Below, piece after piece: positions 2,084 to 5,680 of a DNA stretch of 5,680 nt. Position numbers and translations under genes: made by a program. This DNA comes from a virus (Duplodnaviria; Heunggongvirae; Uroviricota; Caudoviricetes), in IMG/VR virus record IMGVR_UViG_2657245664_000014. One strand, given 5' to 3'. The notes below the pieces were generated by a model. That model was not told where the DNA came from. It ran no database searches and worked only from the letters and a program-made list of their open reading frames with translations. The stretch's first letter is position 1. Each line of letters starts with the position of its first letter.

Positions 2084-2805
2084 GCGAAATTAATTACCAG
2101 GAACTGCGTGAGATAGCAAAAAAGGCAACACAAGGCGAATGGGTCGCATTTATTTCGCCGGGCAAATACGGCACGTACGCCGTACACACACCAGGTGATA
2201 ATCATCACGGAGATATTGTCGACTGGCCAGGATTCGACGAACAGAAGAACGCAGAGAACAACGCTCGTTATATCGCAGCTTTCAACCCTGAAGTAGTACA
2301 GGCACTACTGGACGAACGGGAAAGAAACCAGCAATACATCAAATCCCGCGACCAGGAGAACGAGGATATTGCTCTTACTGTTGGGAAGCTGCGCGTTGAG
2401 CTGGAAGGCAAAGACAGCAAAATAGCCAATCTTACCGCCGAACGCGATGCTCTTCGTGAAGGTGAGATGGGCGACGCTAGGCATAGCAACACACGGGCCG
2501 CAGCTGATATCTACTTCCAACTGGTCGAGGAGTGCGAAATTCCTGCTGGCGGATCTCTGGTCGAGTACGTTGACGATATGCGCGAGAAGCTGGAAGCCGC
2601 AGAGAAGCGCATTGCAGAGTTAGAAAGTGGTTCTCAGGCACAAAAGTTAGTTGAAGCAATCATTGTTGCGATAGAAAACGAACAGGAAAGGCTTTTTGAT
2701 GAAGATTACCTAATGGATTCGAAAGAATGCATTGACGTAATTCGTGAAGAAGTAAAGCGATGGAATGATTCCCGCGCCGCTGGTATTCGCATCAAAGGAG
2801 AGTGA
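2080..2805 (+). CDS. Ead/Ea22-like lambdoid early-region protein
   Basis: GTG at 2080 is preceded by a strong SD AAAGGAGG (2066-2073) at 6-nt spacing, giving the N-terminus (M)SEINYQELREIAKKATQGEW typical of Ead/Ea22-like proteins as recalled. The central region is acidic with heptad-like coiled-coil character. The track's earlier start at 2044 lacks an RBS and overlaps the upstream gene. Confidence 0.8.
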   Translation: MSEINYQELREIAKKATQGEWVAFISPGKYGTYAVHTPGDNHHGDIVDWPGFDEQKNAENNARYIAAFNPEVVQALLDERERNQQYIKSRDQENEDIALTVGKLRVELEGKDSKIANLTAERDALREGEMGDARHSNTRAAADIYFQLVEECEIPAGGSLVEYVDDMREKLEAAEKRIAELESGSQAQKLVEAIIVAIENEQERLFDEDYLMDSKECIDVIREEVKRWNDSRAAGIRIKGE

Positions 2806-2806
2806 G

Positions 2807-2998
2807 ATGAACGGACAAATATCAATTGTTCGACCAGGAGCATGTGACGATCGCGAAATACGAATGATTATTCGTCTGGCGAGGGGGAAAACAATAACTG
2901 CTCTCATTACTCCAGAAAATCTCGCATTAGCATTAACCGGAAAGTCAGACCTGCCAGTAGAGCTAAAGCTGCGAAATGTTGAGATTAAGGTGAAATAG
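2807..2998 (+). CDS. Hypothetical small prophage protein (63 aa)
   Basis: ATG 2807 lies 1 nt after the Ea22-like stop (2803-2805) with AGGAG at 2796-2800. The product MNGQISIVRPG...VELKLRNVEIKVK has no confidently recognised domain. Confidence 0.6.
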   Translation: MNGQISIVRPGACDDREIRMIIRLARGKTITALITPENLALALTGKSDLPVELKLRNVEIKVK

Positions 2999-3000
2999 TT

Positions 3001-3723
3001 ATGAATACTCTTACCAAAGAATGGTTACAGAACACGATTACCGGAATTGAGTCGATAATAGACGATAAATCGTTTGTATGTAGTGAAATAGCATTCGAAA
3101 TAGGTGTGGTTAACAACATACTTACCGCATTTAAAATTGCACTGGCATCGCTGGCAGCAGTATCGGATGAACGGGCAGCCTATGAATTATTTATGGAGAA
3201 GCGTTTCGGGGAATCTGTAGATCGCCGCAGGGCAAAAAATGGTGATAGAGAATACATGGCATGGGATATGGCGCTTGGCTGGATTATCTGGTGTCACCGC
3301 GCCGCCATGCTTCAGGGAGGCCAACCTGTAAACCAAACTTACAACTTGCCAGAATTAATCGAAGGCATGGAAGTTTCCATTGATGTAAGCACTTGTGATG
3401 CTGATTTAGGTAATCGCTATTTCGGCACCGTCACCGAGGCGTTAGAACTTGATACTGCCAAGAATGGTTACATCCTCCTGGTTCAGGACGCAGAGCCAAA
3501 CTTCGATGTAAATGGCAACTCTCCGGTAACTCCGGATAGTTGGATAAGCTGTAGTGAGCGAATGCCGGATGACGGGCAGTGGTGCGTAGTGAACACAGAA
3601 TACGGGTATTACGTGCAATGCTGGTCTGAAGGTCAAGGATGGCTTGGTGATGATATCAGCATCCCTGAATGCGATGTAATCAATTGGATGCCGCTACCGG
3701 AACCGCCGCAGGAGGTGAAGTGA
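3001..3723 (+). CDS. Prophage protein with C-terminal DUF551-like domain (240 aa)
   Basis: ATG 3001 lies 2 nt after the previous stop with AAGGTG upstream. The C-terminal segment WISCSERMPDDGQWCVV...YYVQCW...INWMPLPEPP resembles the W-rich DUF551 domain also seen in YfdS. The N-terminal ~170 aa is unassigned. Confidence 0.75.
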   Translation: MNTLTKEWLQNTITGIESIIDDKSFVCSEIAFEIGVVNNILTAFKIALASLAAVSDERAAYELFMEKRFGESVDRRRAKNGDREYMAWDMALGWIIWCHRAAMLQGGQPVNQTYNLPELIEGMEVSIDVSTCDADLGNRYFGTVTEALELDTAKNGYILLVQDAEPNFDVNGNSPVTPDSWISCSERMPDDGQWCVVNTEYGYYVQCWSEGQGWLGDDISIPECDVINWMPLPEPPQEVK

Positions 3724-4295: not shown

Positions 4296-4331
4296 TTTTC
4301 CCGGGTGCAGCCGGTTTTGATGGAGAAAATT

Positions 4332-4604
4332 ATGAACACCTTGTTTTTACTGATGGCTGAATTCAATACCCCTAACATTGAACTCTCAGCAGTTAGCCAA
4401 AAGTACTTTGGCATGAGTCCAGCCACGGCAGAAGCAAAAGCAAACGCTTGTAAGTTGCCCGTTCCAACATATCGCATCGGCACATCACAAAAAGCAAAAC
4501 GTTGCATCAATATTCAGGATCTTGCGGAATACATAGACAAAAGGCGAGAAGAAGGGCGTGCTGAGTGGGAAAGGGTCAGAACCCATAAACAAAGGCTCAT
4601 TTAA
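4332..4604 (+). CDS. PrtN-family / excisionase-like DNA-binding protein (putative Xis or regulator)
   Basis: ATG 4332 is preceded by GGAG (4322-4325) at 6-nt spacing. The N-terminus MNTLFLLMAEF and the core ...KLPVPTYRIGTSQKAKRCINIQDLAEYIDKRREE resemble the pyocin-activator PrtN family as recalled. It is the last plus-strand gene before the terminator, where xis normally sits. Confidence 0.65.
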   Translation: MNTLFLLMAEFNTPNIELSAVSQKYFGMSPATAEAKANACKLPVPTYRIGTSQKAKRCINIQDLAEYIDKRREEGRAEWERVRTHKQRLI

Positions 4605-4609
4605 ATAGA

Positions 4610-4647
4610 ATATGAATAAACCCATCCAAAGATGGGTTTATTCATAA
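4610..4647. terminator. Bidirectional intrinsic terminator between convergent transcription units
   Basis: A perfect 17-bp inverted repeat, atatgaataaacccatc (4610-4626) and gatgggtttattcatat (4631-4647), surrounds a 4-nt loop caaa. It lies between the 3' ends of the plus-strand chain (stop 4602-4604) and the minus-strand module (stop 4638-4640), with AT-rich flanks on both sides. Confidence 0.7.
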
Positions 4648-5099
4648 TGTTGAAGAGCAGCGAGTATCAGTTTTTTATGCCGTTTAACCATAGTTTTAGA
4701 TATCTCAACTGCACATCGAACTTGTCTCATACAATGATCTGTAATGCGACCTTTTAGCACGTCACCATATTGGATGGCTATTTTCTCTTTAATAATTTCA
4801 AGATCGAAAGCAGCATGAGCCTCAATGCAATTAACAAATGAGTCCCATTTAAGAAAATCATGGTCCTCTCTATTAATTTCGACCTGACAAGCCATAAGAT
4901 CATTGTTTCTCTTAATAAATTCATTTATATCTGAATTTATTAGAAGAACTAAAAGAGGTTCACAGCAAACAACCACCATATATTTTACTTTAGGTGGGGT
5001 CGTAAAATCACAATGAAGATACAATACATCACCGGGTGATATACCTCTTTCACGACTAAAATTAGCCTTAAAATCAGGAGGGAAACAATCACCCAGCAT
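4638..5099 (-). CDS. Uncharacterised ~153-aa protein, putative partner (candidate toxin/effector) of the Panacea-domain protein
   Basis: The minus-strand ORF has an ATG at 5099-5097, or a TTG at 5108 overlapping the upstream stop (5105-5107). It is immediately downstream of the Panacea-domain gene with no intergenic space. AT-rich codon usage; no recognised domain. Confidence 0.6.
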   Translation of the reverse strand: MLGDCFPPDFKANFSRERGISPGDVLYLHCDFTTPPKVKYMVVVCCEPLLVLLINSDINEFIKRNNDLMACQVEINREDHDFLKWDSFVNCIEAHAAFDLEIIKEKIAIQYGDVLKGRITDHCMRQVRCAVEISKTMVKRHKKLILAALQHYE

Positions 5100-5104
5100 A
5101 AGTA

Positions 5105-5632
5105 TCAATATCCGTTCTTCAGATAATCCAGTATTAATTTGCTATTTTTTAGCTGTGCAACTATCGATTCCAAAGACATCTCACCATTGTGATCTGCCTG
5201 TTCCCATGCCGCGTCATGGCTCATGGTTCTGATAGCTTCAAAGGACATGTTTCCAAGCATCGCGATAGACTTATCAATACACTCTAAATCTGAGTCACTA
5301 AAAAAGTCTTCATCAGCTTCACGGCTCGGCACAATCGTCATACCTGATACAGAAAATGCTTTTCGCACAGAATCGACATCACAACCATTAGGAATGTAAC
5401 GTCCATCTCCACGAGCAATTTTTATAATATCGTATGTGTTGCTTGCTACAGGCCCATCCTTCATAGCGTTATAGTGATCGCCCGTTATGAGGCGTCCAAA
5501 ACTTTCAAGGTGAAACCTGTCAGCATAATAAAGAATTTTTCCGACATGATAGATATCTGGGATCGGTGCTTTAGAGGCGACGTACAGAATGGCCTCTAAA
5601 GCCTTTTCTGAATCAAACCTTACATTTAGCAT
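5105..5632 (-). CDS. Panacea/DUF4065 (GepA/SocA-like) domain protein, putative antitoxin; 5' end uncertain
   Basis: The core motif HVGKILYYADRFHLESFGRLITGDHYNAMKDGPVASNTYD matches the conserved K-[IL]-LYYA...G.P...W/AMK.GPV signature of DUF4065 as recalled. The frame stays open to the window edge at 5680. In-frame ATGs lie at 5647 and 5632, the latter with a GAAGGG-like RBS 7 nt upstream, so the start is either of these or beyond the window. Confidence 0.7.
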   Translation of the reverse strand: MLNVRFDSEKALEAILYVASKAPIPDIYHVGKILYYADRFHLESFGRLITGDHYNAMKDGPVASNTYDIIKIARGDGRYIPNGCDVDSVRKAFSVSGMTIVPSREADEDFFSDSDLECIDKSIAMLGNMSFEAIRTMSHDAAWEQADHNGEMSLESIVAQLKNSKLILDYLKNGY

Positions 5633-5680
5633 CAATACACCCTTCATCCAAACAACATCGTCAAGCTCTGGCAAATGCAA

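Follow-up and report, generated by a model that had tools for sequence, protein, structure and literature searches.

A Panacea antitoxin gene and its partner, a predicted MazF-fold toxin of PanT cluster T5, at the end of an Escherichia coli prophage

The panA-panT locus

The DNA considered here, referred to as the window, is a stretch of 5,680 nucleotides from a virus of the Caudoviricetes (IMG/VR record IMGVR_UViG_2657245664_000014). One end of it carries two adjacent genes on the minus strand, panA and panT, which are predicted to form a toxin-antitoxin pair. The upstream gene, panA (5105..5680), encodes a stand-alone Panacea (DUF4065) protein that matches PF13274 with an E value of 5e-20 over residues 48-159. 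It is cut two codons short by the window; its true ATG lies at window position 5686 and yields a protein of 193 amino acids (WP_001535325.1) with the N-terminus M-R-LHLPELDD. The downstream gene, panT (4638..5099), starts with an ATG and encodes 153 amino acids, annotated in RefSeq as a 'hypothetical protein' (WP_000900143.1) and assigned here to PanT cluster T5 with a predicted MazF/PemK-like fold.

An earlier note, made from the letters of the window, had drawn attention to an open reading frame at 4638-5108 as the possible partner of the Panacea gene. This frame is present on the minus strand, with all the peptide stretches quoted from it, and corresponds to an alternative TTG start at 5108 that gives 156 amino acids. 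The annotation of E. coli CFS3292, like that of many other strains, uses the frame starting from the ATG at 5099. The two starts differ in how the genes meet: with the ATG there are 5 nt between the stop codon of panA and the start of panT, and with the TTG the two overlap.

That panT is a real gene follows from its relatives and its mode of evolution. Homologues fall into 41 clusters at 90% identity across Enterobacterales and Idiomarina, and a profile search collects 1,247 representatives of the family (50% identity clusters, E<=1e-3), nearly all of about 150 amino acids. Against a 75%-identical orthologue the ratio of nonsynonymous to synonymous substitution rates (dN/dS) is 0.13, so the gene is under purifying selection. 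Two family members are unusually long, P0340 with 356 amino acids and P0132 with 241 (2501-3226 of its own locus), and both are extended at the C-terminus. They were considered as fusions of PanA with the toxin and rejected as such: the tail of P0340 resembles a thiamine pyrophosphate enzyme and that of P0132 looks like read-through. The extensions are probably artefacts of assembly, read-through or gene calling. Within the panT coding sequence there is also an imperfect, AT-rich inverted repeat of 17 nt at 4907-4948 (88% complementary, 8-nt spacer), which probably arises by chance. An Rfam scan of the window gave no match.

Strict pairing and asymmetric decay

The neighbourhood of homologues offers a direct view on whether the two genes belong together, and the earlier note had proposed to look there. 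Of the homologous loci, 46 include the DNA upstream of the toxin gene, and in each of them the gene immediately before it, on the same strand, encodes PanA. These loci span Enterobacterales, Pseudomonas, Idiomarina and metagenomes; nine viral contigs that end inside or at the pair were left out, and two loci first scored as lacking PanA proved to contain split toxin reading frames and were resolved as PanA present. The arrangement recurs at every level of the comparison: in all 15 of the genome loci taken at species level, in Serratia phage OS31, in every IMG/VR locus containing upstream DNA, and next to all five distant representatives (~30% identity), whose neighbours match PF13274. The pairing of PanA and PanT is thus strict.

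A second line of evidence comes from loci in which the pair is breaking down. Damaged loci were found in Photorhabdus akhurstii, P. australis, P. tasmaniensis and P. viridis. In the first three PanA keeps its full length while the toxin reading frame has lost its N-terminal part or carries a frameshift; in P. viridis both genes are damaged, by a deletion that takes the end of panA together with most of the toxin. Along the same lines, five of the 46 E. coli genomes that carry the pair have a +1 frameshift in the toxin and an intact PanA. The reverse, a damaged PanA next to a toxin that is still intact, was not seen in any locus examined. Decay of the toxin alone is the asymmetry predicted for a harmful toxin that is restrained by its antitoxin. 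Together with the pairing, it supports the suggestion of the earlier note that panT encodes the toxin cognate to the Panacea antitoxin.

The five frameshift carriers, AST20 and JNE070796 among them, are Japanese human isolates that include O166:H15, and they probably represent a single lineage. Their toxin gene is annotated as a remnant of 112 amino acids or left unannotated, and their PanA differs slightly from that of the window (WP_001547985.1).

A divergent MazF barrel

What kind of protein is this partner? The earlier note saw no recognisable domain in it and suggested that it might represent an undescribed toxin fold. At the level of profile libraries the first part of this description stands. 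The protein has no match in Pfam or NCBIfam, and PHROGs and PADLOC return hits that we count as noise (phrog_29007 with E 0.009, PDC-M02B with E 0.017). An HMM (hidden Markov model) search of PDB sequences with two family profiles likewise gave noise only.

At the level of structure the picture is a different one. An AlphaFold2 (AF2) model built on a 30-sequence alignment has a mean predicted local distance difference test (pLDDT) of 90.3 and a predicted template modelling score of 0.83. When this model is compared with known structures by Foldseek, the top four hits are MazF-mt3 and MazF-mt1, with a probability of 1.00 and target-normalised template modelling (TM) scores of 0.63-0.67. In the model the SH3-like barrel of the MazF/PemK/Kid toxins occupies about residues 20-135, its secondary-structure elements follow one another as in MazF, and the combination of SH3-like β-barrel and C-terminal helix that characterises these toxins is present. 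Beyond this core the model shows three helical elements: one at the N-terminus (residues 2-17, at lower confidence), one inserted at 100-114 and one at the C-terminal end (139-148). By this model the toxin belongs to the MazF/PemK fold as a highly diverged representative, and the structural search, itself one of the checks that the earlier note had put forward, speaks for clear MazF matches rather than for a new fold.

Two further features had been read from the sequence, a hydrophobic stretch and a C-terminus rich in Cys and His, and they would be the basis for a membrane-active or metal-binding toxin. The hydrophobic stretch exists: the maximum of a 19-residue Kyte-Doolittle window is 1.77 at residues 40-58, just over the classical threshold of 1.6. 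As a membrane segment it carries no meaning, however. It contains E47-P48, and the model places β-strands at 37-46 and 49-55 with pLDDT >90, which identifies it as the predicted β2-β3 hairpin of the barrel and not a transmembrane helix. Neither hydropathy nor the AF2 model reveals in this toxin a transmembrane helix of the kind found in the small membrane-spanning PanT toxins, for example T3 and T12.

The Cys/His-rich C-terminus did not hold up as a feature. The last 32 residues contain two Cys and three His, and across 115 family members their retention is low: H122 in 1, C123 in 15, C129 in 2, H141 in 34 and H151 in 4. Elsewhere in the protein H80 alternates with Tyr (kept in 58 of the 115) and H95 is kept in 21. 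The only conserved cysteines are C30 (101/115) and C91 (112/115), and no conserved set of four Cys/His ligands for a metal site was found among these members.

Conservation is concentrated at other positions. K39 and S87 are invariant; G23, F32, N55, S56, F82, L83 and C91 are kept in at least 90% of the family, and K37, C30, Q72 and D86 in 83-90%. The allele in the window retains all the family-invariant residues.

A new fold, or a toxin acting on membranes or through bound metal, accordingly has little in its favour apart from the silence of Pfam, NCBIfam and PADLOC and a hydropathy peak barely above threshold. The confident barrel model and its Foldseek matches, the hairpin interrupted by E47-P48, the poor conservation of the Cys and His residues and the existing listing of the family as MazF-like (see the next section) refute this reading, and we regard it as exceedingly improbable.

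Membership in PanT cluster T5

The family has in fact been seen before. Kurata et al. (PNAS 2022, PMC8832971) sorted the PanTs encoded beside Panacea antitoxins into 88 clusters, and in their Dataset S1 cluster T5 holds 66 entries, with HHpred annotations as EndoA/MazF/PemK at 99.4-99.5% and CcdB at 98.5%. One of these entries is the Photorhabdus heterorhabditis pair of WP_054475897.1 and its PanA WP_054475899.1, arranged with the antitoxin first and a 3-nt gap. A homologue of the window toxin (P0033; 53% identity, E 9e-51) falls into the same 90% cluster as WP_054475897.1. On the strength of this shared cluster the window toxin is assigned to T5, as an enterobacterial member of a group catalogued in 2022, although WP_000900143.1 of E. 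coli and Salmonella was not found among the Dataset S1 entries available from that source.

The general features agree with this assignment. Like other T5 toxins the window protein has a length of ~150-156 amino acids, a MazF-like prediction, and a stand-alone ('noNTD') PanA encoded in front of it with a gap of a few nucleotides.

Outside T5 there are MazF-like PanTs with validated activity. Those of P. moraviensis (T6, WP_083201923.1) and B. ruminantium are neutralised by their PanA and specifically inhibit protein synthesis. They resemble the window pair in having a PanA partner, a MazF-like HHpred prediction and an antitoxin-first operon; they belong to other sequence clusters, however, so that their activity carries over to T5 by analogy alone. 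A homologue from Pseudomonas mandelii was considered as a link to T6; it corresponds to WP_141213448.1, which is absent from the T6 accessions listed in the accessible part of the dataset.

A candidate translation-blocking module

Taken together, we consider it probable that panAT is a type II toxin-antitoxin module carried as prophage cargo, in which a T5 endoribonuclease of the MazF fold halts translation unless neutralised by PanA. The proposed sequence of events starts with a single transcript. Upstream of panA, about 20-50 nt past the window end, there is a promoter-like sigma-70 signal (TTGACC-18-TAAGAT), and both genes would be co-transcribed from a promoter at this side. They would also be translationally coupled, because the panA stop codon falls immediately before the panT start or overlaps it. 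At the other end, terminator-like site calls and an inverted-repeat search converge on a hairpin at 4611..4646, a perfect 16-bp repeat with a 4-nt loop and no strand assignment, which overlaps the panT stop codon. It lies 6 nt past the stop of a convergent gene for a PrtN-type excisionase and is likely a bidirectional intrinsic terminator; the operon would thus end at a hairpin shared with the excisionase gene.

At the protein level, the stand-alone Panacea domain of PanA would most likely neutralise the toxin by binding it directly. That such domains can neutralise toxins in this way has been described by Ernits et al. in 2023 (PMC10440598). Once freed from PanA, the toxin would most likely act as a sequence-specific endoribonuclease and stop translation, with K37/K39, N55-S56, D86-S87 and C91 as candidate residues for this activity. 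The biological role would likely be abortive-infection defence encoded by the prophage or stabilisation of the prophage itself.

The endoribonuclease step rests on where the conserved residues sit. In MazF the catalytic residues are R29 and T52 in E. coli and R25 and T48 in B. subtilis, the Arg at the start of β2 and the Thr/Ser at the end of β3. In the toxin model K37 and K39 stand at the start of β2 and N55/S56 at the end of β3. We aligned the family profile by hhalign with MazF, EndoA and Kid sequences, and also with these plus 120 NdoA homologues; the latter are near-identical Bacillaceae proteins that add little diversity, so the MazF profiles remain thin. The same register appeared in every run, at low confidence. 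It sets I-N-S 54-56 opposite C-T-T 51-53 of E. coli MazF, D86-S87 opposite the D-S/D-G of the MazF RNA-binding strand, and K116-G117 with helix 121-133 opposite K91-G92 and the C-terminal helix. The conserved positions of the family would thereby coincide with the catalytic Arg, the catalytic Thr and the RNA-binding strand of MazF, which is the ground for predicting an endoribonuclease.

Compared with the known MazF/PemK/Kid/EndoA toxins (PF02452; structures include S. aureus MazF 4mzm, M. tuberculosis MazF-mt1/-mt3 and Kid 1m1f), the window toxin would share, as the model and the low-confidence register read, a basic residue that opens β2, a Ser/Thr that closes β3, D-S in the RNA-binding strand and K-G followed by the C-terminal helix. 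It also takes the downstream place in a two-gene operon. It departs from them in having no PF02452 match, in using Lys for the catalytic Arg and in carrying ~40 extra residues. The antitoxin departs as well, being a stand-alone Panacea protein in place of a MazE/PemI of the AbrB or ribbon-helix-helix type.

Several observations weigh against the proposed module. A Pfam scan of 30 close relatives and 115 family members (E<=10) brought up no recurring family, and PF02452 was absent. The hhalign comparisons with MazF, EndoA and Kid are not significant (E 0.014-0.1, probability <4%). A Lys stands at the place of the canonical catalytic Arg, and the counterparts of the MazF residues may be K37 or K39 for one and N55 or S56 for the other. 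The same fold is also adopted by CcdB, a gyrase poison. Among tested relatives, the only T5 pair, that of Chryseobacterium bovis, has a toxin that is toxic in E. coli and a PanA that is itself toxic on overexpression, so neutralisation has not been demonstrated for T5; and the 'MazF'-class PanT of Flavobacterium xanthum was non-toxic in E. coli (PMC8832971).

Could the barrel serve another purpose than cleaving RNA? A toxin of the MazF/CcdB fold might poison a different target, such as DNA gyrase in the manner of CcdB, or bind nucleic acid without cleaving it. The lysine at the catalytic position, the invariant S87 and conserved C91 that are specific to the family, the added helices and the insignificant sequence likeness to MazF RNases all fit such a protein. 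The coincidence of conserved positions with catalytic and RNA-binding residues of MazF, for all the low confidence of the register, points the other way, as does the inhibition of translation by the other MazF-like PanTs that have been tested. Poisoning of gyrase by CcdB needs a C-terminal Trp-Gly-Ile tail. The toxin ends in ...LQHYE, which is nothing like this gyrase-binding tail; its structural score with CcdB (1vub) is lower, and it has no CcdA partner. We therefore judge a non-RNase activity unlikely.

Another alternative concerns the pair as a whole, which may not work as a toxin-antitoxin system in E. coli. The toxin would then be non-toxic or decayed, and the two genes would be kept together for a different shared task, such as phage defence by a sensor and an effector that stay inert until a phage triggers them. 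There are precedents: in the work of Kurata et al. eight of 25 tested PanTs were non-toxic in E. coli, one of them the 'MazF'-class protein mentioned above (PMC8832971), and in the proposal of Ernits et al. Panacea serves mainly for sensing (PMC10440598). Frameshifted toxin genes are moreover tolerated in five E. coli and several Photorhabdus genomes. The window allele, however, keeps every family-invariant residue, the low dN/dS speaks for selection on the protein, decay strikes the toxin and never PanA alone, and the C. bovis member of T5 is toxic. On balance we hold an inert pair to be improbable.

A bolder view of the family takes its peculiarities as its essence. T5 would be a large MazF-fold clade of 1,247 clusters at 50% identity that Pfam does not recognise, with extra helices and an invariant set of its own (K39, N55-S56, S87 and C91, with Lys for Arg), whose substrate or chemistry may differ from that of MazF mRNA interferases, and which, as cargo of prophage ends, may act in phage-triggered abortive infection with the stand-alone Panacea domain as the sensor. 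We put this forward as a speculative possibility, doubtful at present, next to the translation-blocking endoribonuclease module that we favour.

Prophage setting and distribution

The host element lies in the chromosome of E. coli CFS3292 (4,758,077-4,798,391), where it forms a complete-looking prophage of ~40 kb inserted in dusA. Its integrase adjoins dusA at one end, and panAT sits at the opposite, right end, followed by a displaced 105-bp 5' fragment of dusA that marks the other attachment site. Most of the window is occupied by the early-left operon, which runs towards the PrtN-type excisionase gene (4305-4604), convergent with panAT. The GC content drops to 34-41% across panAT (window 4500-5680) from about 45-52% in the remaining window, in keeping with a cassette of cargo genes gained by horizontal transfer at this end of the prophage.

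Elsewhere in the window two six-frame open reading frames are longer than the annotated coding sequences. The Ead/Ea22-like gene (2044-2805) is an incomplete pseudogene in RefSeq. The DUF551-containing gene (3001-3723) has a later RefSeq start at 3121 and the name 'dATP/dGTP pyrophosphohydrolase domain-containing protein'.

How widely is the cassette spread? It is present in 46 of 5,426 complete E. coli genomes, in all of them on the chromosome, and the adjoining excisionase region is found in 741 genomes. A tblastn search of 72,556 plasmids returned no copy of panAT, so a role in plasmid addiction is not supported. Among sequenced phages the pair occurs only in Serratia phage vB_SspS_OS31 (4456-5486, p23-p24; toxin 46% identical), where it lies between the gene for a Q antiterminator and those for a DNA methyltransferase and lysis, both of its genes being annotated as hypothetical. 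This scattered presence in prophages and a phage, at differing positions, suggests that panAT moves among temperate phages as a cassette of cargo genes.

Implications for the T5 family

The value of these observations is mostly corrective: what appears as an orphan at the level of Pfam turns out to be a predicted MazF-fold toxin already grouped in PanT T5, and panAT itself, judged by its sequence and context, would be an ordinary prophage toxin-antitoxin pair. T5 is a large and widespread cluster, yet it has neither a Pfam model nor a validated pair. The copy in the E. coli prophage provides a handy representative of T5 in its native host, and the natural frameshift alleles of E. coli are ready-made controls. 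A curated HMM for the toxin family would clear thousands of 'hypothetical protein' annotations.
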